Shown: positions 5,294 through 31,081 of the stretch, piece by piece
How positions within the stretch are numbered: position 1 is the first letter of the stretch
Layout: each line of letters begins with the position of its first letter
Virus record (IMG/VR): IMGVR_UViG_3300032050_000059
Length of the DNA stretch: 64,000 nt
Direction: 5' to 3' (one strand)
Source of the DNA: a virus
Taxonomy: Duplodnaviria > Heunggongvirae > Uroviricota > Caudoviricetes
Translations under genes and position numbers: made by a program
Notes under the pieces: generated by a model
What the model was told of the DNA's origin: nothing
The model's input: only the letters and a program-made list of their open reading frames with translations
Databases searched by the model: none

Positions 5294-6157
5294 TTAATAA
5301 TCATCACCATCATCAGAAAGTACAGCATCTGACGCCACGAGGTTATCATCTGCATTATACTCCTTCAGATCACGGAGAATATAGAAGTCTCTACATCCAT
5401 ATTCACCTGTAACATTGAGCACGAAGCGCTCATGTGGTTTAAGGTCTTTTAGCTTCTTAGCACGAAGACCACTTTGAACTGTACCATCATTATAGTTGAT
5501 GAGACGGAAGTTCTTCAGAGCATAAGCTGGCAAGAATGCCTTGTTGTATATACCCTGATATTCTTTGTTCTCACCATCTTTCTCTTTCATGATGATTGTA
5601 GCAAGAGCACCAATGTTTGTGCAATAAGCACCATCCACTTGTGCTTTCAGCTCGCTAACATTACCTTTCATTAGCTTCTTCCAGTCAGCTTGTAGAACAG
5701 CGTTCTCTTTCATGAAGTCAAGCTTACCCAACCAGGTGCGCAAGAATTCATAAAGTTCTTCTTCTCCTACATATGCAACACGGTAGTCACGCTTTGTGAA
5801 CCAGTCAGCTAAATCATTAGCATCTGCAGCCCAAGCACATCTACCAACATTATTGATATATTGTTTCTTAGAACCGTCTTTGTTTTCACGCTCTTTGTCC
5901 TCTAGGAAGAATGAAGCCTTGAACTTATCTCCGCTCTTGACATCCTTCAACCAGACATCAACACGCAGATAGGTGTTCTTATCCCTGCTCTGTCCTAAAT
6001 ACTCTGTAGCTTTACTGTTCTCAGGAAGTTCAATTCCTAATACTTCTTTGTACTCTTCTGCTGTAGGATTGATGGCTATTACCTCAGCCTCAAACAAACC
6101 TACCTTCTTTGCGAATTCTTGTACTTGTTTCTGTTCTCTTTGATCACCTTGAATCAT
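5294..6157 (-). CDS. putative single-stranded DNA-binding protein
   Basis: 287 aa with an acidic C-terminal tail LSDDGDDY typical of SSB C-termini. It sits between the primase-like and ATPase/helicase genes. Confidence 0.4.
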   Translation of the reverse strand: MIQGDQREQKQVQEFAKKVGLFEAEVIAINPTAEEYKEVLGIELPENSKATEYLGQSRDKNTYLRVDVWLKDVKSGDKFKASFFLEDKERENKDGSKKQYINNVGRCAWAADANDLADWFTKRDYRVAYVGEEELYEFLRTWLGKLDFMKENAVLQADWKKLMKGNVSELKAQVDGAYCTNIGALATIIMKEKDGENKEYQGIYNKAFLPAYALKNFRLINYNDGTVQSGLRAKKLKDLKPHERFVLNVTGEYGCRDFYILRDLKEYNADDNLVASDAVLSDDGDDY

Positions 6158-6192
6158 TGCTTTGAATTTTAAATGTTAATTAATGTGTGCTT

Positions 6193-6864
6193 TTATTTAT
6201 AATACTCGTCTATTGTTTCTGATACTAGCTTCAGATTGTTTGGCACCTTCACATCAGTGAACATACCATCTGGGCTCTTAGCAGGATATTTTCTAAACCT
6301 GTTGGTTAGGAAATAATAATTGGATGTACCGTCTTTGCTCTCCTCAACAAATGTGTATAGACACACTGTCAACAGACCTTCTAAGACAATCTGATTGTCA
6401 ATCATCTTACCAGCTGTCTTAATCTTGTATCCTATAATCTCACCACCATCTTCAATAGTTTCAGGATGTGTGAAATAGAACACTTTAAGATCGTCACGAA
6501 GAGCACGGGCTGTTCTAAAAAGATCAACCATGTCTCTAGCCATCAGTGTAAACTTGGTGAAACCAGTTTCTGTGGCTTTTGCCATCATGTTAAAACCCAT
6601 GATGTAGTTGCTGTCCTCAATAATAATATTCTTGATGTGAGGAGCATCGTTGGATAGCTTGCGCAATCTCTGTGAAATCAGGTTTGCGTCATCTATCTCA
6701 TCATAATTTCTGTTCTCTCTGTTGTACAATTTCTCTGCGCCTTTGAATGGTAATTCTTTCTTTGCTACGTTGATGATGTACGTTTCTTTCGGGTCCAGAT
6801 GTTTGATTGAAGTGGACTTGCCTGTACCAGTTGGGCCCACAATTCCGATTAATTTACTTGCCAT
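6193..6864 (-). CDS. P-loop ATPase (Sak4/AAA_24-like RecA-fold phage ATPase)
   Basis: N-terminal Walker A IGIVGPTGTGKST. Size of about 220 aa is typical of phage AAA_24 ATPases next to helicase genes. Confidence 0.5.
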   Translation of the reverse strand: MASKLIGIVGPTGTGKSTSIKHLDPKETYIINVAKKELPFKGAEKLYNRENRNYDEIDDANLISQRLRKLSNDAPHIKNIIIEDSNYIMGFNMMAKATETGFTKFTLMARDMVDLFRTARALRDDLKVFYFTHPETIEDGGEIIGYKIKTAGKMIDNQIVLEGLLTVCLYTFVEESKDGTSNYYFLTNRFRKYPAKSPDGMFTDVKVPNNLKLVSETIDEYYK

Positions 6865-8406: not shown

Positions 8407-9468
8407 TTATTTGTTTAAGAAATAGGTTTTGTTTGTCACTGCCTCATAATCAGAATCTGTAATAGCAGATTTCTTAGGCAACTCTTTGAACATACCAATC
8501 TGGCCCATAAAGCCTAGACCAATACGAACATCATCTTCACCATAGGAATTCTTTATCAGCCTAAGGTTTCTAAAATACTTAGCACCATACTGATCCTTCA
8601 GCTTATTCAGGTCATAACCACTAGGGTCAGCCACCTTATAACGCATAGGATCAAACAGCGCTAACACAACATCAGCATCATTCTGAGTCTGTGAACTCTC
8701 AGCAAAATCTTCTAGCTGAGGCTCAACATCACCATTCTTTATCCTGATGGGATTGCTAATATCACGATTGAACTGACTCACAACCACTGGCGTATATCCA
8801 TAGAAGTCACGAGCATATCTAAGCTCATCTGACATCTTATCAATAGCCTGCTTCTTGGTAGTCTGGTCCTTGGTTGTCTTCAATAGACCAATATGATCTA
8901 TGATGACAATAGTGATTTCATTCTCATGATTGGGGAAATAGCGCTTATTGAACTCATCCACCTGTTCAATCTTGCCATGCTGCAGAGCGTGAGCTTTAAG
9001 CTCCTTAGCAATACCTACAGCGTTCTCTGGACCATCGATGATTGTGATGACATCATCCATCCTCTGGATGTAATCTTCATACATCAAGAACAAATCATGC
9101 TCATCCTTGGACATCTTATCATTCCAGCCCAATAGCTTGCTTACGGGGATGATAATCCCTTGGTCAATGAATATCTTCCTACTCACCCATTTAGCTAGCT
9201 TATATGTTCTAGAGCGCTCCATAGAGCGATATATGATGCGTAGCTTAACGCCTGGATCTGGTTGACTGATATACCAATCAAATGGATTCAGGACAAACGC
9301 ATCATCAATAAAACTTGTCTTACCAGAGCCTGTTAAACCACCTACAAGGAAGTATATGCTCTTACGGATGCCAATATACCTATTGAGCCTATTAAAGCCC
9401 ATGGGTATACCGTTATTCCTCCCTTCTAGGCCAAGCTCTACTTCTTTCTTAAGTAGTTCAAAACTCAT
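8407..9468 (-). CDS. DnaB-like replicative helicase (RecA-fold C-terminal domain)
   Basis: Walker A GGLTGSGKTSF, Walker B-like VIIDHIGLL, and the H4 motif VVVSQFNRD (Q..R) typical of DnaB/T7 gp4 helicases. Confidence 0.65.
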   Translation of the reverse strand: MSFELLKKEVELGLEGRNNGIPMGFNRLNRYIGIRKSIYFLVGGLTGSGKTSFIDDAFVLNPFDWYISQPDPGVKLRIIYRSMERSRTYKLAKWVSRKIFIDQGIIIPVSKLLGWNDKMSKDEHDLFLMYEDYIQRMDDVITIIDGPENAVGIAKELKAHALQHGKIEQVDEFNKRYFPNHENEITIVIIDHIGLLKTTKDQTTKKQAIDKMSDELRYARDFYGYTPVVVSQFNRDISNPIRIKNGDVEPQLEDFAESSQTQNDADVVLALFDPMRYKVADPSGYDLNKLKDQYGAKYFRNLRLIKNSYGEDDVRIGLGFMGQIGMFKELPKKSAITDSDYEAVTNKTYFLNK

Positions 9469-10091
9469 ATATCAGTTCCTCCTACGGGTTTATCAGTTTC
9501 TTCAACCTTTCCACCCTCTTTAATTAATTCAATGAATGGTTCAAAGCTACGCTGATTCAGATAGGTGAAAGAGTTCTGCATATAACTAAGTCTGTTAGTG
9601 CTAGTTTTAACAGAGTTCTCTTTCTTCTGAAGGACATCAAAGTTCAGCGCTTCTATCATTTGAGCTGCTGTATATTCTCCCTCAAGAAGAATCTTATCAA
9701 ACCTGAGCCTGCATTCATCTTTATTCTGTCTCAAGCTTCTTGCGCCTGTGAACTTCTTACCCTTGTGGGTAAATGTATCAGTGCCTGGATATGCTTTCCA
9801 CCACTCTTCAAACTCTGTAGTGGCAGGCTTACGCTTAACAATCTTTGTTGCTTCTTTGCTTTCTATAAATTTAAGGAGCTCTGTCCCTTCTGTCGTTATC
9901 TTCTCATCACTAGTGGATATGAGTCCTTTTCTAATTAAAGTTTGATAGAGCGCAGCGATCTTCATGCTTCCTTCACAGAGAGGCTGAACATCCATCTGCT
10001 GCTCTATCAACTTTAAGAGATAAATAACGTCCAAGGAATAGCCTTTTTTAATCAGCTCTTCAAAATGGTAGGGCGTTATCTTTAAGTTCAT
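9465..10091 (-). CDS. hypothetical protein (208 aa)
   Basis: ORF overlapping the DnaB-like gene start by 4 nt. Its position suggests a helicase-associated function. No motif found. Confidence 0.4.
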   Translation of the reverse strand: MNLKITPYHFEELIKKGYSLDVIYLLKLIEQQMDVQPLCEGSMKIAALYQTLIRKGLISTSDEKITTEGTELLKFIESKEATKIVKRKPATTEFEEWWKAYPGTDTFTHKGKKFTGARSLRQNKDECRLRFDKILLEGEYTAAQMIEALNFDVLQKKENSVKTSTNRLSYMQNSFTYLNQRSFEPFIELIKEGGKVEETDKPVGGTDI

Positions 10092-10962: not shown

Positions 10963-11394
10963 TTAGTCTTTAATGCGAAGCCCATATCCCAGGTCAAACC
11001 ACTGGAATGTTTGTTCAGCTTTGCCTTTGTTGAATTTAAACACCTTCCTCAGTAGAGGAATAGCGTAAGACTTGAACAGCTCGTGCTGTTGTGTGGTCAT
11101 TGTGAAGTTGTGAAACCACATTTCATCCTTTTTAGCATCCTCTATGGTTTTACCCACCATATTCAGCTGATACTCAATTAGATGGTCCTGTATATTTGTT
11201 CTATTGATGGTCACCTTGGGCTGTGGGAAGAATCTATTGAGCCTTATTTGCTCTAGGAATTCTTTTTTATCCCACACTTCCACATGTGGACGCTCTTCAA
11301 TAAAAGACAGCTTGACAATATCCCCTTTAATGTAACTGATGAAACAAGGAGTACCAATGTAGTCCTTGTACTTGTCTCCTTTTGAAAGTTTCAT
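10963..11394 (-). CDS. hypothetical protein (143 aa)
   Basis: ORF that abuts the polymerase gene stop. Confidence 0.4.
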   Translation of the reverse strand: MKLSKGDKYKDYIGTPCFISYIKGDIVKLSFIEERPHVEVWDKKEFLEQIRLNRFFPQPKVTINRTNIQDHLIEYQLNMVGKTIEDAKKDEMWFHNFTMTTQQHELFKSYAIPLLRKVFKFNKGKAEQTFQWFDLGYGLRIKD

Positions 11395-13352
11395 TAGAAT
11401 AAGGTTAACTGATTAGGATTAACTACCACCTTGCGCTTCTTGCCTTCAGATGCTATCTTATAGATGATCTTCTCAGCACGCTCAATGTAATAGTCATAAT
11501 TAATGTTATCCAGAGGATGTTTTTTGTCTAGGTGATTGCATACGGTGGCTAACCACTCACCAGCTTCCACTTGTGAAACACTGGCAGCACCACTTTGACT
11601 GTCCTCATTTTTAACCTTTAGGAGCTTTTCTCCTGTATTGGAGATGTAATAACGAATGAGCTTATTGTATAGCTTCTTCTCACCTGTTGACTTATCTATT
11701 CCTTCATAATGGAAATCCTTGCTAGCCTTTTGTCTCAGGCAGAAGTCAAAGATATTATTATGATTCCTAATAGTATGCTCAATAGGTATATCACGAACAA
11801 AATATTGTTCAAGAGCCATTGGTACAATGCGTGCTGACTTGTTCTTATGAAGCTCGAAATCTGTGAGGAAATCGCCTTTCTTCTTAATTTCTCCATCTGT
11901 TTTTATCGCAAGATAGTCATTTACAGTGGAAAATATAATTTTTTGATAGTCAGCTCGTTCTAGCTCATATTTGGTCAGTTCAGACCACCATTTGTTTATC
12001 TCATGCATCCTATCGATGAGTGTCTTCTTTATTCTTATAGTGACACCATCTGTATTTGCAGAGATAACACGTATACCAGCTAGTTCATAGGCCTCAATAA
12101 GCATCATCAGGCTCAGTTCACCTGTAATAGTGGTGAACATAGTGAGCTGCCTATCATAAATCCAGGATTGCATATCACTAGATTTGCCATAAACTGAGTT
12201 TACAGCAAGCTTCAGTGCACCTACAATACCCTTGATTTTCTTATCCTTCTTAGCTAAAGGCTTGAGTTCCAATCGCTTCTCAAACATGGCTTGATAGCCT
12301 CTGAGAAACGCAGATCCTAAGTGTTGTGGATAACGGCCATTATTAATGATGATGGCTGGATAATAGGAACTTACGTCCCAGTCTATAATCTCATGCTCAT
12401 CATCAGCTTCAAATATCTTAGGTTTATTCTCTGTATGCAGTCCGCCCTTCATGAAAGAATATACATTATCATAGAAATGTAGCTCCTCCTTAAAGTCATC
12501 CTGCAGCCCTAAGCTTAATCTCTTTATTCTCTTGAGGAAGTCTTGTAGCTCTTTGGTCTGAAACTCCACATATGGAGCAATACAGTTCTTTACAGCTATA
12601 GTCTTCCTAAAGAAGCCCTTCTTGGGCAGTTCTTTATATTCTATTCCCTTCTCCTGGCAATAGAACTTCTTAATCATCTCATCACCTATCTTACTATCAG
12701 AATAGTTGAGACAAGGGATACCGAACTCTTGCTCGATATCCTGTCTCAGCTCAATCTTATTATCTCCCTTATACAAGGGATGATCTGTTTGTCCAATAGT
12801 AACTAAATAGAATTGATAAGTGGCCCACACATCATTCAAACAATAACCCGTGATGGTAAAAATATCATCGCTGGTCATGTCTGTCTTGTTGTGATCAATA
12901 GGCATCTCCTCAATATTCTCAAGGTCCATCTCAAACTCTAATCTCTTCAGGCTCACTCTTCTATTCTTGTTGTCAAAGTGGTGTATCCTGAATAAGTCTA
13001 TTTGTTTGAGCGTGAGGTCTGTCTCACGATACTCTGGAAATACATCATGATTAGCATCATCAATAACATCAGATGCTTTCTGATTTATCCTGGCTGTAAT
13101 CTCTAGACTAGAGAGCTCATGCCAATTCTCATAGTTGCGTATCACCCATTCTATCACCTGAGAGTCAAAGCGCAAGTTGTTGTAGCCCACCCAATGATAG
13201 TCTTTGTACTTCTCTGTGAAATTAATAAACGCATCCAGATTGTTCTCATCCTTATTCACCTTGAACACTCTGTATGGTTCTTGAGGAATCAACGCCACCA
13301 CAAGGAAATATTCTTTAAGCGTCTCTATGTCATAAATGATTACATTGTCCAT
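11394..13352 (-). CDS. family-B DNA polymerase with 3'-5' exonuclease domain
   Basis: Exo I IIYDIETL. Pol motif A DWDVSSYYPAII (Dx2SLYPS-like). Motif B KLAVNSVYGKS (Kx3NSxYG). Motif C-like ISANTDGV. Confidence 0.8.
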   Translation of the reverse strand: MDNVIIYDIETLKEYFLVVALIPQEPYRVFKVNKDENNLDAFINFTEKYKDYHWVGYNNLRFDSQVIEWVIRNYENWHELSSLEITARINQKASDVIDDANHDVFPEYRETDLTLKQIDLFRIHHFDNKNRRVSLKRLEFEMDLENIEEMPIDHNKTDMTSDDIFTITGYCLNDVWATYQFYLVTIGQTDHPLYKGDNKIELRQDIEQEFGIPCLNYSDSKIGDEMIKKFYCQEKGIEYKELPKKGFFRKTIAVKNCIAPYVEFQTKELQDFLKRIKRLSLGLQDDFKEELHFYDNVYSFMKGGLHTENKPKIFEADDEHEIIDWDVSSYYPAIIINNGRYPQHLGSAFLRGYQAMFEKRLELKPLAKKDKKIKGIVGALKLAVNSVYGKSSDMQSWIYDRQLTMFTTITGELSLMMLIEAYELAGIRVISANTDGVTIRIKKTLIDRMHEINKWWSELTKYELERADYQKIIFSTVNDYLAIKTDGEIKKKGDFLTDFELHKNKSARIVPMALEQYFVRDIPIEHTIRNHNNIFDFCLRQKASKDFHYEGIDKSTGEKKLYNKLIRYYISNTGEKLLKVKNEDSQSGAASVSQVEAGEWLATVCNHLDKKHPLDNINYDYYIERAEKIIYKIASEGKKRKVVVNPNQLTLF

Positions 13353-17801: not shown

Positions 17802-18310
17802 GAGCTATAATGTCCGTTATAACGGACAAAAATGAGCTATAATGTGCATAATAACGGACATTATACTCTTTTGGATATAAAAAGGCAATATATTGCTCTT
17901 TTATATGCTTTCGGGTATAGAAAACAGTTTTACGTACGTAAAAGTGTGATTTACAGCACTTTTTCAAACATAAAAATGGAGCAGCCTATGTTTCAAGACT
18001 GCTCCTGTGTACTTACTAATAACCCAACCCTTCGAGTTCATATGCATTAGCTTCCACAACAATATTGCCATGGCTCACTGAATACATAAATAAGATGTGC
18101 AAGCGATTTGCAAGGGCTTGGAATAGTTTAAACTCTGTTGGTGTGAATGTGATCTTTTTCATTTTGAAGGATTGTGTGTTGTTGATTAATAAGGACGATT
18201 TGCTTTACGAACAACCTGTTCCCAAGTCATTCTACCCTTGCAGCCATAACCTGTGGTCCTGCAAGACGACATAAATATAGCAATAACTGCTAACAATAAC
18301 AATTTTCTCA
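17802..18310. promoter_or_regulatory. ORF-poor regulatory region dense in perfect palindromes and a 30-bp tandem duplication
   Basis: Perfect palindromes: TGTCCGTTATAACGGACA (17811-17828), GCAATATATTGC (17886-17897), TTTTACGTACGTAAAA (17927-17942), and the hairpin GGAGCAG-N14-CTGCTCC (17979-18006). There is a tandem ATGAGCTATAATGT... duplication at 17802 and 17832, and an inverted copy ATAACGGACATTAT at 17851-17864. Confidence 0.5.
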
Positions 18311-18493
18311 TTAGAACTTGTTTTTAGGGTTGAGAAATTCCTTTTTATTATCCATGAGAGATGTAAATATCCCTTCACATGCATTATCCCAATGTGAGCT
18401 GTCCCACATAATAATGCTAACTATTGCATGCCATGCAATGAATGGTGAGGCTAATGCTATAGACACACCATAATAAAACCATCTTAACAACAT
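18311..18493 (-). CDS. small hydrophobic (membrane) protein (60 aa)
   Basis: The hydrophobic stretch YYGVSIALASPFIAWHAIVSIIMW. Confidence 0.35.
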   Translation of the reverse strand: MLLRWFYYGVSIALASPFIAWHAIVSIIMWDSSHWDNACEGIFTSLMDNKKEFLNPKNKF

Positions 18494-18565
18494 AACTAAT
18501 TGATTTACAAATTAATAATAACTGATTGATTATCAGCTGATTAATACTATTTTCTGTATTCTAGA

Positions 18566-18600
18566 TAAATAAAAAGGGGACCGTGTAGACACACATCCCC
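18566..18600 (-). terminator. candidate rho-independent terminator for the leftward transcript
   Basis: On the minus strand: GGGGATGTGTGTCTACACGGTCCCC stem-loop followed by TTTTTATTTAT. Confidence 0.45.
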
Positions 18601-18824
18601 GTACGATTGCTTGCTTCCATAATATCTTTAACACCCTAATTTATCCAACTTACAGGTGTCATGGCTGTCCCTATTGCTAGGTTAGGAATAGTCATTCGTC
18701 CTCATGAGGTCAAGCTGACTGGCTTAGGTGTTCTCCCTATACACCAATGTACGTTCCCATATGGCTATCACACCATTTCTCATCGTATTGGGCATACTAT
18801 CTGTGGATTAGACAGAACGTAAGT

Positions 18825-19022
18825 TTATAATCCTCTAAATGTCCCATCAGGGAAAGCATATTCTTCCCACTCGCCATTCACAGGCACCATAACACTATTG
18901 TCATACATATTAATGACAACAATACGTTCTCCCTTATCTAATAACTTATCTAATCCCTGTTCAGGAAACTCTCCTGTGTATTTGACACATGTCTTCTGTG
19001 TCTTGTTGATGATGATGTACAT
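18825..19022 (-). CDS. hypothetical small protein (65 aa)
   Basis: ORF. It has a conserved upstream element shared with neighbouring gene starts. Confidence 0.35.
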   Translation of the reverse strand: MYIIINKTQKTCVKYTGEFPEQGLDKLLDKGERIVVINMYDNSVMVPVNGEWEEYAFPDGTFRGL

Positions 19023-19587: not shown

Positions 19588-19789
19588 AACAATCGTTTAA
19601 ATGGTTAATTAATGCTATATTTATCCTCTAATAATTTGATTCTCTGTTCTACCAATTTACCTATTAAAAGTGTCTATGGGTCACACTGCCTCTCTCTAAC
19701 TCACACTAAATCAATGAGTTATGAGTTGGAAGTAATGATGAGCCCACCCTAAGGAATGGTAATTCCCCACCCATATATATAATAGAAGA

Positions 19790-19818
19790 AAGAATGTCCC
19801 CATTGAGAGGACATTCTT
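19790..19818 (-). terminator. candidate terminator hairpin downstream of gene 19826..20251
   Basis: 10-bp perfect stem AAGAATGTCC/GGACATTCTT with a 9-nt loop. On the minus strand it is followed by TCTTCTATTATATATAT. Confidence 0.35.
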
Positions 19819-19825
19819 CTATTCA

Positions 19826-20251: not shown

Positions 20252-20733
20252 AATGCCCTTTCAGTTTTTTGTGTGGTGACTCCACATTTTACAGTTAATA
20301 ATTATTAAGGAAAAGAACAGGGGGGCTATCCCGACTCTCCAAATTCTGCTGGGGGTTTCTGGATGGAATACCCTCCCCTCCCATGCACATAATAGGTTTT
20401 TGGTTCCACGTGGAACATGGGGGGATTGTCAACCTATAGGCTTACATATGGGGGTGTTTTGTCAGCTTATAGGTTTACAAAAAAAATTTTGTTGGTTATA
20501 TGGAGGATGTGTTATAACTTTGGGGCGGTGGGTGGGTTAGGTGATAGTTCCGTCCTATGGATATATGAGCAATTGGTGGTTTGAAGTGGTTGACGGATGT
20601 CTCTGAGCTAAGAATATAAGAATGGGGAAGGTGTATCTGGTTGAAAATAAGACATAATATAGCAATAGTATAAAAGATTGTATTTGACTATGTTATAAAG
20701 TCTTCCTATCTTTGTATCAACTACATTAACAAT
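20252..20733. promoter_or_regulatory. divergent intergenic switch region: G-runs, direct repeats, a perfect palindrome and a host-type promoter
   Basis: The 14-bp perfect palindrome GTTCCACGTGGAAC (20403-20416). Two roughly 30-bp direct repeats, GGGGGGATTGTCAACCTATAGGCTTACA (20419-20446) and GGGGGTGTTTTGTCAGCTTATAGGTTTACA (20450-20479). Several further G5-6 / C-rich runs. Local GC is well above the genome background. Confidence 0.55.
20683..20714 (+). promoter_or_regulatory. Bacteroidetes sigmaA-type promoter (-33 TTTG / -7 TAnnTTTG) for the rightward operon
   Basis: TTTG (20683-20686), then a 20-nt spacer, then TATCTTTG (20707-20714), about 20 nt upstream of ATG 20734. This matches the Bacteroidetes consensus spacing of 19-21 nt. 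Confidence 0.5.
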
Positions 20734-21078
20734 ATGAAGGTCATATTACAAAAGCTGAAGAAACAGGAGGAGGATAGCTATCTGGTAGCAGAGAGGTATT
20801 ACACCATCCTGTCAGCTATTAATGATCTTAAGCTGACACAAAGGGAAATACAGCTTTTGGCTTTTACGGCTATTAGGGGGAATATATCCTATGCCAATAT
20901 AAGACAGGACTTCTGTGATAAGTATGGCACCACCAACCCCTCTATAAACAACATCATTTCCAGGCTGAAGAAGATGGGGGTGCTGGTGAAGGATGGGACA
21001 AAGGTGAAGGTGAACCCCAAAATACTATTAAACTTTGAAAACGATGTCACCCTTGAAATCAGACTTGTTCACAGATAA
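20734..21078 (+). CDS. hypothetical protein (114 aa), possible HTH regulator
   Basis: First ORF of the rightward arm. Contains the segment LTQREIQLLAFTAIRGNISYANI. Confidence 0.4.
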   Translation: MKVILQKLKKQEEDSYLVAERYYTILSAINDLKLTQREIQLLAFTAIRGNISYANIRQDFCDKYGTTNPSINNIISRLKKMGVLVKDGTKVKVNPKILLNFENDVTLEIRLVHR

Positions 21079-21085
21079 TAAGCCC

Positions 21086-21502
21086 ATGAGCCTTCCTGTT
21101 AAGGATTGGATCATTAGAAAGCTGGCTGTGAAGATGATGCTGGGGGAGAAGACCATTGAGGCTGTTGTCAACCATCAGTTTCAGGAAGCTAACAAGGCGC
21201 TGACAAAGCATAAGAGTTTGGAGATCAGTGGGTTTGGCAAGTTCTTCTTCAATGAGGGAAAAGCTGTCAAGCAGATGGCGAAGTTTGAAAGCCAGAAAGA
21301 GCTGTTCAGCAGGATTTTGGAGAACGAGGTGTTGACGGACCAGAAAAGGAAGTCGATAGAGCTCAAGCTGCAAATAGCCCTAGATAACATAAGAGACTTA
21401 AAACCAAAGATGTATGTCGATGATTTCCCAGATTTACGAGGGGTGGAGGAACAATTTGATACCCCCAGAGAAGATGAGGACAGCGATCATAGAGACGAGT
21501 AA
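21086..21502 (+). CDS. hypothetical protein (about 139 aa; internal Met start chosen to avoid overlap)
   Basis: ORF 21035..21502 trimmed to the MSLPVKDW start. Confidence 0.35.
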   Translation: MSLPVKDWIIRKLAVKMMLGEKTIEAVVNHQFQEANKALTKHKSLEISGFGKFFFNEGKAVKQMAKFESQKELFSRILENEVLTDQKRKSIELKLQIALDNIRDLKPKMYVDDFPDLRGVEEQFDTPREDEDSDHRDE

Positions 21503-22427: not shown

Positions 22428-22746
22428 AAAAACTACATACGTAAATGCTGAGCTTGATTGGGCAGAACAGCAGCTTTCCTCATGGAAGGCTTATGTGGAT
22501 GCCAATCCCCTGCATGAACTTAAGGATAGAATTGAGTGGAAACCAACGGCTAAAGGAGGCATGCTTCCTATGGTGATCGCATCAATCGAAGCACAGGGTA
22601 AGTTTATACAGGAAACAATGAAGAACTACTTAGCTCTTCTTGAGGTGGTGGAGAAACTACGTGAGAAAGAGGAAGCTAAAGTGGAAATCAGAGGTAATGG
22701 AGAACTAAGCTCCATGGCTGAAGACTTCCTTAAGAGCAGAAGATAA
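22411..22746 (+). CDS. candidate terminase small subunit (111 aa)
   Basis: Small coiled-coil ORF immediately upstream of the large terminase. Its stop overlaps the large terminase ATG. The call is positional only. Confidence 0.3.
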   Translation: MAKTIKKTTYVNAELDWAEQQLSSWKAYVDANPLHELKDRIEWKPTAKGGMLPMVIASIEAQGKFIQETMKNYLALLEVVEKLREKEEAKVEIRGNGELSSMAEDFLKSRR

Positions 22747-24773
22747 TGAACGAGCTTAAGAGCATAGACTACAAAGACTGGTTTATTAACCAGGGGCGTC
22801 TGCCTGACCGTGAGTCTGCAGAGTATAAGCCGTTTTTTGACTTTCATAGAGAAATATGCTTGAACGGGTGCTTAATGAACGGGGTGTATATCAACCCATT
22901 CCTTTACTGGCACCTGAATGTTTGGCATACAGAGGTGGATGTTGTAGATGAAAGAGGACGCATCTTCCAGAAATATGCAAATCCCCTGTTACGTGATAAC
23001 GAATGGATTGTGACAAATGAGATTGACAGGGCACAACAAGATAAAAAGGGCTTGGTGATACTAGGAATACGACGTTTTGCCAAGTCTGTTTTAGAGGCTT
23101 CTTACATAGGGTGGGGCGCAACATTTGATGAAAACTCCCAGAATGTGATCGCTGGGTTAAATGCCCCCGACATAAAGCTGATCACAGATAAGCTGGACAA
23201 GGGCCTCAACTTCCTTCCTGAAGCATGGAGATGGCAGAGAGTTGAGGACAACTGGAAAAACCAAGTCACCCTAGGTATTAAGACTCGTGGAGGAGAACGT
23301 ATACCATTTTCTCAAATCCTCATCCGTAACTTGGATGAAGGTAATAACGAAGAAGCTATTGCAGGTACCAAACCTCGTAAACTAATCATTGACGAGATTG
23401 GTAAGGGCAACTTCCTCAGAGGCTTTCAGGCAGCTGTGCCAGGTTTCACCACACCTTATGGTTGGGGATGTTCTCCTCTACTTACAGGTACAGGTGGTGA
23501 CATGAAGAAATTCATGGATGCCAAGAGCCTAATGTTTGACGTGGACAACTTCAACTTTCTCACTTATAACAATGAGAAAGATGACAGAAGGGTGCACGGA
23601 CTTTTCATTTCCTATAAGTATAGGATGGAAGCTAAGGAAGAATCCACACTTGGAGCATTCCTTGGACATTCAGAGGACAGCGATTTGAACAATGTCCCTA
23701 TGCTTGTAAGTAATGAGGAGAAAGCAAAGGAGATAACAGAGAACAATCTCGAACGCCTTAAAAAGGCTGGAGATAGAGTGGCCTATCTGAAGGAAAAGAT
23801 GTACTATCCTATGGAGGTGGATGACATCTTCCTGAATGAGGACACAAATATATTTGACATAGAAGCAGCCAAGCGTCAAAAAGGTAGGTTGCTCATGCAG
23901 GGGCGTACAGGAACTCCTGTTATTCTGTTTCATGATGGTGAGAACATCAGCCATGAGTTTACAGATAAACAGCCCATAACCAACTTCCCCCTAAAGAACA
24001 GTGACTTGAAAGACGCTCCTGTTGTCATCTACGAATTTCCCATCGAAAATCCTCCATATGGACTTTATGTGGCTGGTGTGGACCCATATAGACAAGGTCA
24101 AGCTGCATATTCCACCTCTCTTGGTAGTGTGTACATTTATAAAAGAATGCATGACATAACAGGAGAGAAATATCAGGATATGTTCGTAGCTTCGTACTGC
24201 GCTAGACCTGAAAAGAAGGAAACATGGGAAGAACAGGCTAGATTGCTCATCAAATATTACAATGCTAGAACGCTTTGTGAGAATGATGACATCTCCTTCA
24301 TAGAATACATGAAAGCAAAGGGAGATGCACACTATCTAGAGAAACAACCTGACTGGCTGAAAGAAGTGGTGCCTGGAACAACAGTGAAACGTGACTATGG
24401 TGTACACCGTTCTGCAGATAAGATAAGAGACTACCTGCATAACTGTCTGAAGAAGTATATGGAGGCTGTGATATATCAGGAGAAGGATGAAGATGGAAAG
24501 GTGATTAAAGAAGTGACAGGTGTATCAAAGATATTTGATCCCGTGCTGTTGGAAGAGATAATTCAGTATAACGATCAAGGTAACTTTGACCGTATTGTGG
24601 CTGCAGAACTTGCTATTGCTCAGGCTCTTAAGATGGACCCTGTGATGGGCAAGGTGGGAGGATCATCAGATCCTAGAGTGAGTGCGATATTCAAACCCAA
24701 CAAGAAGAACGTATTGTTCACAGAATCTCGTGGGTTATTTAATAAAAGGAAAAAAAGTAAACTATTTTTATAA
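22746..24773 (+). CDS. terL: terminase large subunit (ATPase plus RNaseH-like nuclease)
   Basis: 675 aa. Walker B-like KLIIDEIG and P-loop-like ILGIRRFAKS. C-terminal nuclease-like VAGVDPYRQG. Immediately followed by the portal gene. Confidence 0.65.
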   Translation: MNELKSIDYKDWFINQGRLPDRESAEYKPFFDFHREICLNGCLMNGVYINPFLYWHLNVWHTEVDVVDERGRIFQKYANPLLRDNEWIVTNEIDRAQQDKKGLVILGIRRFAKSVLEASYIGWGATFDENSQNVIAGLNAPDIKLITDKLDKGLNFLPEAWRWQRVEDNWKNQVTLGIKTRGGERIPFSQILIRNLDEGNNEEAIAGTKPRKLIIDEIGKGNFLRGFQAAVPGFTTPYGWGCSPLLTGTGGDMKKFMDAKSLMFDVDNFNFLTYNNEKDDRRVHGLFISYKYRMEAKEESTLGAFLGHSEDSDLNNVPMLVSNEEKAKEITENNLERLKKAGDRVAYLKEKMYYPMEVDDIFLNEDTNIFDIEAAKRQKGRLLMQGRTGTPVILFHDGENISHEFTDKQPITNFPLKNSDLKDAPVVIYEFPIENPPYGLYVAGVDPYRQGQAAYSTSLGSVYIYKRMHDITGEKYQDMFVASYCARPEKKETWEEQARLLIKYYNARTLCENDDISFIEYMKAKGDAHYLEKQPDWLKEVVPGTTVKRDYGVHRSADKIRDYLHNCLKKYMEAVIYQEKDEDGKVIKEVTGVSKIFDPVLLEEIIQYNDQGNFDRIVAAELAIAQALKMDPVMGKVGGSSDPRVSAIFKPNKKNVLFTESRGLFNKRKKSKLFL

Positions 24774-27367
24774 TGGCTATCATTAGATATACCAAGGATG
24801 CTACGATTAGATATGCCTATCTAAACATATTCCCTGATCAGTTCAAGACTGACAAGGAAAAGCAAGATGAGAGTTGGATAAAGAACACCATGGACTACTT
24901 TGCAAACAAGGCATATGCTGAGTATGTAAAGAATCGTGACACCTTTGTCAAGAATTATGACTTAATGAAAGGCATCCTTCGCATGGAGGACTTCTATCAA
25001 GAACCTCAGGTGAGAAGTTTTACAGATATGATGACAGCTGATTTACAGCTTCCTGCATATGTAAAGATGTATTCCATCATAACCACTCCTGTTAACGAGC
25101 TGGTTGGCGAGATATCAAAACGTCCAGACACCTTCCGTGTTAAGGCATTTGATGATGACAGTAAAGCTGAAGAGCTACAGTTTAAGACAGAGATTCTTCA
25201 GCAATACGTTTTAAATGAGGCTAAACAAAAAATCATACAGTCTGCTGCTCTAAGTGGAGAAGAAATTTCTGATGAGGAATTGCAGCAGATGAGTTTTGAA
25301 CAAGTGAAAGAACAATTGGATGCTTACACATCTGTGGCTGAAAAATGGGCCAACCATGTTCTCACTTGTCAGAAAGCAGAGTTTAACTTAAAAGAAAAGT
25401 CAGAAGACGCCTTCCGTGATATGTTGATATCTGGAAGGGAGTTCTATCACATATATGAAGACAACTCAAAACTTGGATTTAATATTGAGGTGGCTAACCC
25501 AAAGAACACTTGGTTTCTTACAACTCCTGATCGTAAGTGGATCTCTGATCCTACAGGTAGAGCTCAGGGGGCTTATGCCGCTGGTACAGTTCAGGTTATG
25601 GAGCTTTCAGAAATCATTGAGAGTATTCCTGACCTCACCAAAGAAGAGATTGATCACTTACGTTCATCTCTTCAAGACTATGGATTGATTAATGTACGTG
25701 AGTCCAACCTTGGTAATCCTGATGCGATTCCTGGTATAGACTCTGTAATGTATGATACATATGATCCTCTTGTTCTTCAAACTCGTATGATTATTGAATC
25801 AGAGATGAAGGAGAACAATGATGGATTAAAAGACTTCTTGGGACTTACATCTAACGTATCTTCCTTTGGATACAAATACGTTGTTGTTCGTTGTTACTGG
25901 ATTAGTAAGAAGAAGATTGGTAAGCTCATCTATCTAGATGAATTGGGCAACGAACAGTCTGTTCTGGTAGACGAGAACTACAAATCTGGTACTGTTCCTA
26001 CACAACAGAGTTTGGAGTGGGGATGGATTAATCAGTGGTATCAGGGTACAAAGATTGGTCCAGACATCTATCACATCAAACCATTCAAGCTTCTTAACTA
26101 TTGTCCCATCATTGGTACAACTTATGAAGTGAAGAACACGGAGGCTAAATCTCTGGTGGATTTGATGAAGCCTTTCCAAGTGTTGTACAACGTTTGTATG
26201 AACCAGTTGTACAAATTGCTTGAGAAGGAAGTGGGTAAGGTGTATTTGACTTCCATCAGACATATTCCTGTTCCAAAGGATGGTGATGCTCAAGATGCAT
26301 TAGACATCTGGGAAATGGAAGCACGTAACAGGGGTGTTGTATTTATTGATGATAGCCCTGAGAACTTAAAGAGTCCTTCAAGCTTCAACCAGTTTAGGGA
26401 TATTGACCTTACACGTACACAGGAGATTCAATCTCGTTATACACTTGCTCAACAAATGAAGAATGAATGTTGGGAACTAGTAGGTTTGTCTAAGCAACGT
26501 CTTGGTTCTGTATCAGCTAGTGAGTCTGCAACAGGAACTAACACAGCCATTCAACAATCCTATTCTCAGACAGAACCTTTGTTTGTAGCACATGAATATG
26601 TTCTTGGACAGCTATATCAAGCCATCATTGATGCTGCCTTGTATGTAGAATCCAAGAAGCCTCAGTCTACACTCTCTTACATTACAAATGAAGGAGAGTC
26701 AGCATTTGTTTCTGTAAATGGTTCTGATTTAAGATTCCGTGATTTGAAAGTGTTCTTGACTAATCGTCCTGAGGATACACAAATGTTTAATGAGCTTCGT
26801 CAACTTGCTCAGGCTGTTATTCAGAACGGTGGAAGCTTGTACGATGTGATTGAGCTTTACAGCACCAAGTCTATGAGAGCCATGAAGAAGGTGTTCAAAG
26901 ATTTGCGTGATAAACAAGATGCCATCCAGCAACAGCAATTGCAACAAAAACAGCAAGAGCTTGATCAGCAACAACAACAAGTTGCAGCTCAATTGCAACA
27001 AGCTCAATTGCAACATGAACAACAAATTGCTCATGATGATTATCAGAAAGAGCTTGATAGAATCAATAAGAAAGAGATTGCTATAATTTCAGCCACAGGT
27101 TATGGAAAAGTGGCTTCCGAAGATGCAAACTCTAATGCTGTTCCTGATGTGTTGGAAGTGAGCAGGCTTGCTAATGAAGAAACATCTGCAGCAAATCAAC
27201 ATCAGGCAAAGCTTATGGAAATAGCATCCAAAGAAAGACAGGCTGCTGAAAAGCTAGCTCTGGAAAGAGAGAAGCTTCAGGTGGATAGAGAAAACCAAAA
27301 GAATGACTTAGCCGTAGCTAAAGAAAATGCTAAAGGAAGAGCTAAGCAACCTAAATCCAATAAATAA
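24773..27367 (+). CDS. portal protein
   Basis: 864 aa. Its ATG overlaps the terminase stop (TAATGG). Gene order is terminase-portal-scaffold-capsid. Q-rich C-terminal coiled coil QQQLQQKQQELDQQQQQVAAQLQQAQLQ. Confidence 0.55.
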   Translation: MAIIRYTKDATIRYAYLNIFPDQFKTDKEKQDESWIKNTMDYFANKAYAEYVKNRDTFVKNYDLMKGILRMEDFYQEPQVRSFTDMMTADLQLPAYVKMYSIITTPVNELVGEISKRPDTFRVKAFDDDSKAEELQFKTEILQQYVLNEAKQKIIQSAALSGEEISDEELQQMSFEQVKEQLDAYTSVAEKWANHVLTCQKAEFNLKEKSEDAFRDMLISGREFYHIYEDNSKLGFNIEVANPKNTWFLTTPDRKWISDPTGRAQGAYAAGTVQVMELSEIIESIPDLTKEEIDHLRSSLQDYGLINVRESNLGNPDAIPGIDSVMYDTYDPLVLQTRMIIESEMKENNDGLKDFLGLTSNVSSFGYKYVVVRCYWISKKKIGKLIYLDELGNEQSVLVDENYKSGTVPTQQSLEWGWINQWYQGTKIGPDIYHIKPFKLLNYCPIIGTTYEVKNTEAKSLVDLMKPFQVLYNVCMNQLYKLLEKEVGKVYLTSIRHIPVPKDGDAQDALDIWEMEARNRGVVFIDDSPENLKSPSSFNQFRDIDLTRTQEIQSRYTLAQQMKNECWELVGLSKQRLGSVSASESATGTNTAIQQSYSQTEPLFVAHEYVLGQLYQAIIDAALYVESKKPQSTLSYITNEGESAFVSVNGSDLRFRDLKVFLTNRPEDTQMFNELRQLAQAVIQNGGSLYDVIELYSTKSMRAMKKVFKDLRDKQDAIQQQQLQQKQQELDQQQQQVAAQLQQAQLQHEQQIAHDDYQKELDRINKKEIAIISATGYGKVASEDANSNAVPDVLEVSRLANEETSAANQHQAKLMEIASKERQAAEKLALEREKLQVDRENQKNDLAVAKENAKGRAKQPKSNK

Positions 27368-29333: not shown

Positions 29334-30887
29334 ATGGCAATTCAAACAATCCCAGGTCTAACTGGCTTCACGTATGCTCGTGTCGCATCTATGGACAAGC
29401 GTGCTGTGGGTAAGCTAACTGACGCTAACCACCTGGAGAGCTTTCACTCAACTGAGCCTGCTGATTACGATAAGAAAATCATCAGCCTCTACACACAGAG
29501 CTCTCTTTACAGCAATGACTTCCTAGACATGATCAACAAAAGCACGCCTTATTACATTGATAATAATAGCGATGCTTGGAAATGGCAAGTAGCTGTTCCC
29601 TACAAATTCCCTAAGATTATCGACATCCCTGCTTCAACTCTTGAGTTGAGCAAGCCTGGTATCGATGGTCAAGAGTTCCAATTGGTAATTGACACAAACG
29701 AGTTCTCTAAGAACGCAATCGTTTCTGTTGGTTCTCGCCAATATGGTCCTCGCTTTTACGTTATTAAGGATCCAGTTCCTTGGAACATGGGCTTCCTTTA
29801 TAGCTTCACTTTGGTTACAGACAATCCAACTGTAGACTTCGTTAGCCCTACCTTCTTGCAAGTGGGTATCGAACTTGAGTTGGTTGATGCTGCAATTGGT
29901 GAGTTCGATCAAGATTTGTTAGGTCTTCCTCGTTTGGGTGAGCAAATCACAATGTTTGAATCTTTGGGTTCTGCATATGGTTTTGAGCACAAAATCACTG
30001 AGTGGGCTGATGACAAAATGATGCGTGACTCTGCAGGACGTCCTTTGGATATCCTTGTTTATGCACCTCAGCGTCGTAACCAACTTCCTTTGACTCGTAA
30101 CGATGTTAAATGGGAGCCATTCATTGAGTTCTGGATGCGTAAGTCTATGCTTGAGTTGAAAGTTAAGCGTATGATTTGGTCTCGTCCTGGTACTGTTAAG
30201 ACTAACGGTAGCAAGCAAGAACTTAAGCGTACATCTGCTGGTGTTTATCACAGAATGCGTAATAACGGTAACTTGGTTCAGTACAACCGTGGAGAATTCA
30301 CTGCAAACTTGATTCGTTCAGTGTTTGGTGATTTGTTCTATCGTCGTGTGGATGTTAAGGACCGTCGTGTTAAAATGTATACTAATGAAGCAGGTTTTGA
30401 CGTGTTCCAACAAGCTTTGAAGACAGACGCTTTGAACAGTGGTTTGACATTCATGGCTGATAGCGGAAACCGTTACATGCAAGGAGAAGGTCAACACATC
30501 ACTTACAACTTTGCATTCGATGCAATGGTTACTCGTGAGACTGGTCGTGTTGAATTGATTCACTTGAAAGAACTTGACCTGCCTCAATCTAACCTTGAAT
30601 TTGGTCAGAACAAGAAGTCAACTCCTGTATTCATGGTGTTCGACGTATCTCCAATGTCTGATGGTTCTTTGGTTAATAACATCCGTGAAGTTCGTATGAA
30701 GGGTGCACCTTCTATGACTTGGGGTTATATCGATGGAACTCGCCACCACTTGGGCTTTGCTAAGTCTCAGGGTATGAGCTCTGCGAACAAATTCCCAGGA
30801 TATGAAATCTGGATGAAGGATCGTTGTGATGTATTCATTGAAGACTTGTCTCGTACAGTCTTGATTGAGGAAATCCCACAATTCTAA
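29334..30887 (+). CDS. major capsid protein
   Basis: 517 aa. Gene order fits. Extreme translation-optimised codon usage (Arg almost exclusively CGT; GGT/GCT/GTT/AAC/GAC preferred), unlike neighbouring genes. Followed by a multi-hairpin element. Confidence 0.6.
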   Translation: MAIQTIPGLTGFTYARVASMDKRAVGKLTDANHLESFHSTEPADYDKKIISLYTQSSLYSNDFLDMINKSTPYYIDNNSDAWKWQVAVPYKFPKIIDIPASTLELSKPGIDGQEFQLVIDTNEFSKNAIVSVGSRQYGPRFYVIKDPVPWNMGFLYSFTLVTDNPTVDFVSPTFLQVGIELELVDAAIGEFDQDLLGLPRLGEQITMFESLGSAYGFEHKITEWADDKMMRDSAGRPLDILVYAPQRRNQLPLTRNDVKWEPFIEFWMRKSMLELKVKRMIWSRPGTVKTNGSKQELKRTSAGVYHRMRNNGNLVQYNRGEFTANLIRSVFGDLFYRRVDVKDRRVKMYTNEAGFDVFQQALKTDALNSGLTFMADSGNRYMQGEGQHITYNFAFDAMVTRETGRVELIHLKELDLPQSNLEFGQNKKSTPVFMVFDVSPMSDGSLVNNIREVRMKGAPSMTWGYIDGTRHHLGFAKSQGMSSANKFPGYEIWMKDRCDVFIEDLSRTVLIEEIPQF

Positions 30888-31065
30888 GGCCCCCCTGTAA
30901 TCTCAGAATTACAGGTCTGCTTCCTCTGGAAGCGTACATATACCGAGAAGAGAATGCCCCCCACACTCCCATGTGGGGGAGCTCTTCTCAAATTACAGAG
31001 TGTTTGGATTGGGGAGTCTCCCAGTCGCTGGCCCTTCGGTGGGAACCACTCTGCAAATAAAACCA
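30888..31065 (+). ncRNA. GC-rich multi-hairpin RNA element downstream of the capsid gene (terminator/attenuator cluster or structured RNA)
   Basis: Hairpins: CCTGTAAT-CTCAGA-ATTACAGG (30894-30915). GCTTCC-TCT-GGAAGC (30919-30933). GAGAAGAG..CCCCCACA-CTCCCA-TGTGGGGG..CTCTTCTC (30945-30989). CAGAGTG...CACTCTG (30996-31053), enclosing a CCC-TTCGGT-GGG hairpin. Confidence 0.45.
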
Positions 31066-31081
31066 AATAAATAAACTACAT

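Follow-up and report, generated by a model that had tools for sequence, protein, structure and literature searches.

What controls the point at which the two arms of a crAss-like phage diverge? This question is raised by a window of 64,000 nucleotides (nt) from the IMG/VR virus record IMGVR_UViG_3300032050_000059 (Caudoviricetes), which belongs to an environmental crAss-like phage of the Bacteroidota type. In this window the replication arm is read leftward and the packaging and structural arm is read rightward; all long open reading frames (ORFs) are leftward to the left of 20251 and rightward from 20734, and a divergent intergenic region of 482 bp separates them. The initial annotation, made from the sequence alone, had flagged the interval 20280-20560 for two direct repeats preceded by G runs and for a perfect 14-bp palindrome, and had suggested a replication origin with iteron-like repeats and/or promoters recognised by the virion RNA polymerase (RNAP) for the leftward genes. 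The results described here point to another function: the repeats contain a pair of dyads that are also found in front of the mmpA-mmpB operons of bacteria, and they could be operators for an MmpA-type helix-turn-helix (HTH) regulator acting on a host-type promoter, named here P1.

Two dyad sites within the repeats of the switch region

The strand switch is real, and every repeat, palindrome and G run quoted in the initial annotation was present at its position. Repeat 1 is GGGGGGATTGTCAACCTATAGGCTTACA (20419-20446) and repeat 2 is GGGGGTGTTTTGTCAGCTTATAGGTTTACA (20450-20479), and a repeat search gave two 28-nt copies with 79% identity and 33 bp from start to start. Inside each of these sequences, which had been described as 30-bp direct repeats, there is a 20-bp imperfect palindrome that had been missed, TGTMA-N3-TATA-N3-TKACA (clade consensus TGTCAAGCTATAGCTTTACA), and both window sites match this dyad with 0 mismatches. 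Site 2 begins 33 bp after site 1, a distance of approximately three helical turns, and 8 bp separate its end from the -33 box of P1 (Table 1). Allowing up to 3 mismatches, the repeat motif was found in the 64 kb at these two sites only (4 strand-matches versus 0.17 expected, with 0 of 100 shuffles reaching 4), so that the search for further copies proposed with the initial annotation leaves the repeats unique within the window.

Concerning the base composition, additional G runs start at 20320 (G6), 20351 (G5) and 20522, and 6 of the 46 runs of four or more G in the window are located within the 482-bp intergenic region, which is a clear concentration. The sharp rise in GC content previously described is a rise indeed, but a modest one, with a GC of 0.438 in 20280-20560 versus a window mean of 0.395 (standard deviation 0.029) and 7% of the equal-sized windows being as high. 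In the interval 20541-20733 the GC is 0.33.

The same sites in bacteria and in other phages

The exact pair pattern TGTNANNNTATANNNTNACA-N13-TGTNANNNTATANNNTNACA has 24 specified bases, and its chance expectation in 596 Gb of bacterial genomes is estimated at ~0.002-0.1, depending on the base composition. It was found in 17 contigs of the bacterial genome collection, at least 13 of them from Bacteroidota (Chitinophagaceae, Cytophagales and Bacteroidaceae included), the remaining ones being those of a Citrobacter, a Sedimentisphaerales and an Alteromonadaceae. For 15 of the 17 contigs the sites belong to an array in which 2-4 copies follow one another at a period of exactly 33 bp. Between the end of the array and the start codon of a gene encoding an HTH protein of 137-166 aa there are 2-50 bp, and this gene is followed by another of ~198 aa. 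The HTH protein, which is of the XRE type, belongs to NCBIfam TIGR02612, "mobile mystery protein A" (MmpA; 146 bits versus a cut-off of 122.6), and the second protein to TIGR02613, "mobile mystery protein B" (MmpB; 260 bits, above the cut-off), which also contains the Pfam Fic domain. The sixteenth contig carries another XRE-type HTH gene beside the sites. The 33-bp spacing is present in 30 of 33 bacterial pairs, and the position-frequency matrices of the phage and bacterial sites show a correlation of 0.84. Several arrays are located in large chromosomal contigs with unrelated genes around them (for example, in the isolate Pinibacter aurantiacus MAH-26, contig L218, with mmpA at 6156-6614), and they are therefore the control region of the operon itself and not phage DNA. 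Moreover, MmpB matches the PADLOC candidate defence family PDC-S04 (2.6e-19) and SoFic, and MmpA matches HTH_VI and CapH; the HTH-Fic module resembles candidate defence systems. The literature searched on the mmpA-mmpB pair contained nothing on its mechanism or DNA binding.

Some features of the bacterial loci should also be described. In the arrays L207-L223 (e.g. L218:6067-6152) only 2-3 bp separate the ATG from the end of the last dyad. TTTG is often found at the beginning of the spacer that precedes this dyad, whose right half (TAACTTTA) resembles a -7 box, and hence the promoter seems to form part of the array itself, with an mRNA that would be nearly leaderless. A 986-aa ORF that looks by eye like a restriction enzyme subunit follows mmpAB in the Citrobacter contig (L207), and no matching copy of this mmpAB locus was found in E. 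coli.

Regarding phages, the exact pair is present in 10 stretches of IMG/VR, 5 of them from the clade of the window phage. A single-site scan of IMG/VR returned mostly background; among the matches listed, those in the clade were always upstream of the gene encoding the 114-aa protein with which the rightward arm begins, and a second phage group carried TTTAAGCTTATAAGTTTAAA-N13-TGTAAGCTTATAGGTTTACA without any homolog of that protein. The same pair was found near XRE-type HTH genes in other Bacteroidota-type phage groups, again without the 114-aa protein, and every occurrence of the motif beyond the main phage clade has an adjoining XRE-type HTH gene.

The second group comprises L087, L097, L101, L105, L126, L127, L146, L163, L172 and L186, in which the pair is followed directly by a DUF736-like gene of 77 aa and by a gene of 66 aa that looks like an HTH. 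These phages encode recombination genes of the RecT/exonuclease type and a sigma-like gene (all named by eye), and they have no 114-aa homolog, P1 or block 1, the latter being an 80-bp element of G and C runs at the left side of the switch region of the window phage. In three related viral contigs (L183, L203 and L205) the exact dyad pair, with its 33-bp spacing, is within the coding sequence of a 224-aa ORF.

Within the clade, the sole lineage with an extra DNA-binding gene at the switch region carries an MmpA-like one. This is a 158-aa ORF inserted in the relatives L031, L033, L109 and L184 (L031:2138-2611), whose C-terminal half matches the MmpA HTH (8e-12 with a local hidden Markov model, HMM) and TIGR02612 (1.6e-6, in the HTH part only). 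The C-terminal HTH aligns with that of MmpA, including the signature GWIKA.R...MS..QLG..L.(I/V)(T/S)(R/K)Q, and the N-terminal domain, recognised by eye, is presumably T5orf172-like. One dyad and a -33/-7 promoter of its own are found upstream of the gene, and its 3' end lies right at two further dyads, which are followed by P1. These two dyads are only 23 bp apart. A single-peptide scan of limited sensitivity for further MmpA-like genes in the IMG/VR phages of the clade returned the L031/L033 lineage only.

Conservation of the sites in relatives

The region was aligned in 16 relatives and subsequently scanned in 80, and 53 distinct regions from block 1 to P1 were obtained using block 1 as the anchor. 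At least two dyads were found in 25 of these relatives, one in 13 and none in 15. The sites are retained in 72% of the lineages and lost in 28%; block 1, P1 and the second rightward promoter, P2, are universal. A lack of conservation of the repeats in relatives had been named as an argument against the initial interpretation, and the opposite was found: the dyads are still present in relatives whose neighbouring protein is as little as 65% identical. In 19 distinct pairs in exact 33-bp register the sites contain 1.4-1.5 bits per position versus 0.6-0.75 in spacers and flanks; as the sites were collected by consensus match, their information content is somewhat inflated. Of the 34 phage pairs, 25 have a spacing of 33 bp and 7 one of 32 bp. 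The G-run prefix of the dyads is restricted to close relatives, and other spacers are found in the deep ones. Lineages without sites, such as L005 and L009, encode a 114-aa protein with ~90% identity and keep block 1, P1 and P2.

The palindrome that precedes the dyads could be a second dimer-binding site. Allowing 2 mismatches at most, its motif, GTTYCACGTGRAAC, was found at the corresponding position in ~50 of the 80 relatives, with three copies in L070, and its only match in the window at 2 or fewer mismatches is the palindrome itself. Both the repeats and the palindrome appear to behave like protein-binding sites, as the initial annotation had supposed, and the switch region stands as a conserved and functional control region at the point where the arms diverge.

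In L040, L055 and their relatives (e.g. L040, at -900 to -600 with respect to the gene of the 114-aa protein), a -33/-7 promoter and a 72-aa ORF are located between block 1 and the dyads. In this sub-lineage an additional inverted repeat (ATAATGTGTC...GACACATTAT) also lies between the dyads and P1, and a membrane-like ORF of 80 aa separates P1 from P2.

A proposed operator pair for an MmpA-type regulator

Regarding these data, the two dyads may be an operator pair for an MmpA-type HTH regulator that acts on P1, a proposal whose chances of being right or wrong we consider balanced. Two dimers of the protein would bind the dyads cooperatively and on the same face of the helix, given that the 33-bp spacing is about three helical turns. 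The centres of the sites are at approximately -58 and -91 relative to the start predicted near 20528, and the bound protein would modulate P1, which would fire rightward into the arm that encodes the winged-helix protein, the IHF-like protein, the terminase and the structural proteins. In bacteria the arrays overlap the promoter, and therefore autorepression is implied there; in the window the dyads are upstream of P1, so that both repression and upstream activation would be possible. The binder is probably encoded by the host, because the window has no MmpA-like gene, or it could be encoded in the ~45 kb of the genome outside the window. A host-encoded binder would couple the phage arm to whatever state a Fic toxin-antitoxin or defence module of the host is in. 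The patchy retention of the sites would fit an optional input, tied to a patchy cassette, better than an essential cis-element. We infer both the identity of the binder and its effect on P1 from the sequence.

The window and the mmpA-mmpB operator arrays share the same 20-bp dyad, the 33-bp period and the tandem copies. On the other hand, the 2-4 bacterial copies overlap the promoter and abut the start of mmpA, whereas the window has two copies upstream of a separate -33/-7 promoter and neither mmpA nor mmpB; moreover, the operator role in bacteria is itself putative and undescribed in the literature. The phd-doc operon of bacteriophage P1 is an autoregulated type II toxin-antitoxin system, in which the toxin Doc has a Fic-type fold and the antitoxin binds tandem palindromes cooperatively. 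Tandem palindromic sites before an operon with a Fic-fold toxin are common to both systems, but the phage sites described here are detached from any toxin-antitoxin gene pair. Another comparison can be made with the LexA boxes of temperate phages, which are operators for a host regulator within phage control regions. As proposed here, a phage promoter region would likewise carry sites for a regulator encoded outside the phage and be coupled to the state of the host, with the differences that the role of LexA would fall to the HTH protein that accompanies Fic in a toxin-antitoxin or defence-like module and that this phage shows no sign of lysogeny. LexA itself was discarded as the binder, as the published motifs of the Bacteroidota LexA boxes (GGA-N5-TCC and CTAA-N5-TTAG) do not match the sites.

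Several points weigh against this proposal. No MmpA or MmpB homolog was found among the ORFs of the 64-kb window at an E value of 10 or better, and the local HMM, built from 14 bacterial MmpA proteins, gave no match in the window. The autoregulation of mmpA through its arrays is deduced from their position, by analogy with type II toxin-antitoxin operons. Furthermore, mmpAB is a patchy and mobile cassette, and the lasting conservation of sites for a patchy, and here putative, host factor needs to be explained. Across the clade the distance from site 2 to P1 varies from 57 to ~240 bp, and in deep relatives there is an extra inverted repeat between site 2 and P1. Because this distance is not fixed, the control of P1 specifically is best supported for the close relatives of the window phage only.

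A broader form of the operator proposal would extend it beyond this phage, and we advance it tentatively, as something that probably does not hold. The lytic crAss-like clade and at least two other groups of Bacteroidota phages would keep a host HTH-Fic operator at the centre of their control regions, with which the phage would either read the state of the module, the packaging and structural arm being gated on the presence or decay of MmpA, or titrate MmpA by means of the decoy operators on its replicating genomes, and the sites would be gained and lost with the host cassette.

Alternative explanations for the repeats

The dyads could instead be operators for a phage protein present throughout the clade, most obviously the 114-aa winged-helix protein, which would autoregulate P1 and P2 in the way MarR does at marO; the likeness to the mmpA sites would then be due to convergence, or to a mimicry that lets the phage protein bind the host operon. 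Its gene is the first one downstream and is universal in the clade, the fold predicted for the protein is a DNA-binding winged helix, and conservation demands a reliably available binder, which a window without an MmpA-like gene does not offer in MmpA. MarR binds at marO two dyad sites of ~20 bp separated by 13 bp, and the layout found here is the same, next to a winged-helix gene that the JGI annotation names as MarR family. However, the 114-aa protein has no significant sequence or structure match to MarR, and the lineages that lack the sites keep it at ~90% identity. The motif and its period are also found in other phage groups and in 17 bacterial loci without a homolog of this family, and the DNA-binding gene adjoining the motif elsewhere is of the XRE-type HTH, or MmpA-like in the L031 sub-lineage. 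Autoregulation by the 114-aa protein is considered unlikely on these grounds. The patchy distribution of the sites, with many one-site and mismatched versions, and the presence of an adjacent HTH gene in one sub-lineage only would also be consistent with the decaying relic of a captured HTH cassette, as in L031, without a present function in the window phage. Nevertheless, both window sites match the motif perfectly, and the 33-bp phase and the core bases persist where the flanking non-coding sequence can no longer be aligned (0.7 bits in spacers versus 1.4-1.5 in sites), which leaves a relic with a slim chance of being the explanation.

The reading of the repeats as iterons of a replication origin would make the 114-aa protein the initiator, with help from the IHF-like protein, and the unwinding element would be the A/T tract located between site 2 and P1; in a variant of it, P1 and its G-rich start would prime replication through a persistent R-loop, as in ColE1, T4 and mitochondrial origins. 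The cumulative GC skew has its minimum within the window at ~20 kb and the sign of the skew flips at the strand switch, as an origin there would predict, but the coding-strand switch coincides with the skew switch and both effects are confounded. The 114-aa family shows consistent matches to Phage_rep_O, the N-terminal winged helix of lambda O, which stay below the threshold (30 of 32 members at an E value of 0.01 or better, the best being 2.2e-5; 2e-4 and 22.3 bits versus a cut-off of 28.7 for the window protein), and homology to lambda O was not supported, with an hhalign probability of 0.2%. The next gene encodes an HU/IHF-like protein, and the lambda iterons likewise consist of dyads that are repeated, carry G/C runs and lie near a winged-helix gene and an A/T tract; lambda, however, has four iterons ~20-24 bp apart inside the O gene and a long A/T-rich region, whereas the window has two sites 33 bp apart, dispensable in relatives, and a tract of just 12 bp. 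In the prototypic crAssphage, an origin has been predicted at the strand switch beside repL (PMC10983915), and the region studied here has three universal and unexplained elements: block 1, the A/T tract and the invariant G-rich box with which the P1 transcript is predicted to start. Against all this, the repeats are only two copies, each one a dyad, single in 13 relatives and absent in 15 of the 53, which keep the rest of the region; because they are missing in 28% of the lineages, they cannot be an essential origin element. The motif with its 33-bp period marks bacterial HTH-Fic promoters and not origins, and the weak match to a "replication initiation protein" is located elsewhere (9465-10091). 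The iteron interpretation is thus not supported and its probability is low; an origin may lie elsewhere in the region, perhaps primed by transcription from P1, and would then not rest on the repeats. The other suggestion of the initial annotation, that the repeats are virion RNAP promoters for the leftward genes, fared worse and is very improbable. The phage does encode large crAss-type virion proteins, and the stated lack of a -33/-7 promoter holds for the first leftward gene (none on the minus strand in 20252-20500), but not further down the arm, where host-type matches appear at 17996 and 14617. In addition, the motif is found at a single locus in 64 kb and does not recur upstream of other units, the repeats are 170-230 bp from the leftward ATG with block 1 in between, and they are lost in 28% of the lineages. 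In phi14:2, early transcripts share no motif, the replication genes are rifampicin-sensitive middle genes, and the middle and late genes are read by the host RNAP; crAss001 has its early genes in a small block at a genome end, and its replication functions are middle genes. The virion-RNAP operon of both phages is such a terminal block, and by analogy with them the leftward arm, which is the replication module, would be read as middle genes by the host RNAP.

Other elements of the control region

The comparison of relatives revealed a fixed order of elements: block 1, palindrome, dyad pair, P1, G-rich box, variable leader and P2. Their coordinates, together with those of the main genes of both arms, are displayed in Table 1.

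Table 1. Elements of the switch region and genes of the two arms in the 64-kb window
Feature	Position	Strand	Details
DNA polymerase	11394-13352	-	Replication arm
DnaB-like helicase, helicase, primase		-	Downstream leftward genes
First leftward gene, 141 aa	19826-20251	-	No family match; heads the replication arm
Block 1, 80-bp G-run/C-run element	20316-20395		G6-CTAT-CCC 20320-20332; G5 20351-20355; CCCTCCCCTCCC 20371-20382
Perfect 14-bp palindrome GTTCCACGTGGAAC	20403-20416		Second putative dimer-binding site
Putative operator site 1, TGTCAACCTATAGGCTTACA	20427-20446		20-bp near-palindrome; G6 in front at 20419-20424
Putative operator site 2, TGTCAGCTTATAGGTTTACA	20460-20479		G5 in front at 20450-20454
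A8T4 tract, 12 bp	20479-20490		Between site 2 and P1
Promoter P1, Bacteroidota type	20488-20522	+	-33 TTTG 20488-20491 (or TTG 20492-20494); -7 TAACTTTG 20515-20522
Near-invariant G-rich box GGGGCGGTGGGTGGG	20522-20536	+	Predicted start of the P1 transcript; GGGGYGGWGGGTGGG in the clade anatomy
Promoter P2 and invariant upstream block	20654-20714	+	ATAATATAGC 20654-20663; TTTG 20683-20686; TATCTTTG 20707-20714
114-aa winged-helix protein	20734-21078	+	First rightward gene; universal in the clade
HU/IHF-like DNA-binding protein	21044-21502	+	Pfam Bac_DNA_binding 2.2e-6, above cut-off
crAss-type large terminase	22746-24773	+	PHROG match 4e-86
Portal	24773-27367	+	PHROG match 4e-93
Major head protein	29334-30887	+	PHROG match
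1691-aa virion protein		+	

Block 1 starts 65 bp from the ATG of the leftward gene in the window, and in most relatives a leftward ORF of ~130-142 aa starts roughly 25-65 nt to the left of it. An nhmmer profile of block 1 matched once, and on the same strand, in 74 of 81 sources. Its position is where a leftward promoter or 5' leader would be, and if there is an unusual leftward promoter in this region, block 1 would be the candidate. As a structured RNA it was rejected: RNAalifold on 54 sequences gave 6 pairs, in the G run and C run only, with 0 compensatory changes, so that covariation is absent, and there is no plus-strand promoter before block 1. In several lineages the C run able to pair with the first G run is shifted by ~9 nt (GGGGGG-ATATGTCAAC-CCCCC). 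A tract of the AAAAAAATTTT type is also kept in the region, and in deep relatives it is found directly after block 1.

P1 and P2 both follow the pattern of the Bacteroidota primary sigma factor (-33 TTTG and -7 TAnnTTTG, with a spacer of ~19-23 bp). P1 lies inside the interval that had been flagged initially but was missed, only P2 having been seen, and its transcript would start near 20526-20530. The pattern TTTG-N18-24-TAnnTTTGGGG is present in 52 of the 53 distinct relatives, with the boxes kept and a spacer that is variable in sequence and usually 21 bp in length; conserved boxes with a drifting spacer are the classical signature of a real promoter. The G-rich box GGGGCGGTGGGTGGG has invariant columns in the alignment of 16 relatives, is found in virtually every relative and has a single match in the window. 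It is G-quadruplex-like, with tracts of 4, 2, 3 and 3 G. This box, GGGAGGGGAGGG (20371-20382, minus strand) and a third G-rich stretch (19743-19779, minus strand) are each on the sense strand of their own direction of transcription. No significant fold was found in the P1 leader (z = +1.18), and the leader between P1 and P2 is variable, with a small ORF in some deep relatives. P2 confirms that the rightward operon has a canonical -33/-7 promoter, being the only strict TTTG-N19-21-TAnnTTTG match in the window; it ends 19 nt before the ATG of the 114-aa gene, and its invariant block in the clade is CATAATATAGCAAT.

Genes and sequences near the switch region

The 114-aa family has 136 relatives in IMG/VR, in contigs of up to ~117 kb, and 1542 homologs in a large protein collection. 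The AlphaFold2 model of the window protein, with a predicted local distance difference test (pLDDT) score of 76.5, has an H-H-H-H-E-E winged-helix topology. Foldseek returned nothing reaching an E value of 0.001 for this protein (the best hit was the N-terminal domain of T4 MotA, 4.9e-3), and a profile search against PDB gave nothing significant (the best hit was FocB, with an E value of 0.096). The call of the HU/IHF-like gene was transferred from the relative L229.

In the leftward arm, a 208-aa protein beside the DnaB-like helicase (9465-10091, minus strand) is the one with the weak PHROG match to a "replication initiation protein" (phrog_270, 6e-5); it has no Pfam match, and iterons were sought nearby and not found. 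About 1 kb of this arm (17802-18825) contains only short ORFs of 41-60 aa, and the -33/-7-like match at 17996 (minus strand) is located there. Between the first and second leftward genes (19743-19822, minus strand) there is a hairpin (AGAAGAATGTCC...GGACATTCTTTCT) followed by TATATATGGGTGGGG-N15-GGGTGGG, and pairs of CCCNCCC are found at the equivalent position in ~30 relatives. In the rightward arm, the intergenic sequence after the major head protein gene (30888-31081) forms nested G/C-rich hairpins (CTGTAAT...ATTACAG; GAGAAGAG..CCCCCCACA-CTCCC-ATGTGGGGG..CTCTTCTC), which are probably a terminator or RNA-stabilising structures.

No tRNAs were found in the window, and Rfam gave no match for the whole window at the gathering thresholds; in the switch region, at an E value of 1 or better, there was nothing beyond one match at chance level. 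Among 50,697 phage records, no cultured phage resembling the switch region was found by blastn at the DNA level or by tblastn at the protein level. A genome terminus or pac site at the switch region was also considered and is improbable, as the contig ends of the relatives are scattered; a few of them fall at G/C runs, which suggests breaks in the assembly. Several contigs of the clade (L013, L032 and L001) end inside the switch region, 1 and 6 nt before the -7 box of P1 and inside block 1; these ends are probably assembly breaks at G/C runs or the boundary of a variable flank, and not a fixed end.

Implications for crAss-like phages

In the switch region, protein-binding repeats and host-type promoters come together in a regulatory hub, and the initial interpretation is partly supported in this sense. 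Apart from the virion RNAP and a generic promoter motif of the host type, almost nothing is known about how transcription is controlled in crAss-like phages, and a concrete element with a candidate family of binders is defined here. Within the switch region it is block 1, P1 and the invariant G-rich start that are truly universal, and they are the targets for the question of the origin and of the leftward promoter. As far as the searchable literature shows, this is the first operator predicted for the widespread HTH-Fic pair of mobile mystery proteins A and B, and it links the mmpAB pair to phages, a link that appears to be new. If host MmpA does bind the phage sites, the expression of the phage would be wired to a toxin-antitoxin or defence repressor of its host, which would be a new type of cross-talk between phages and defence systems.

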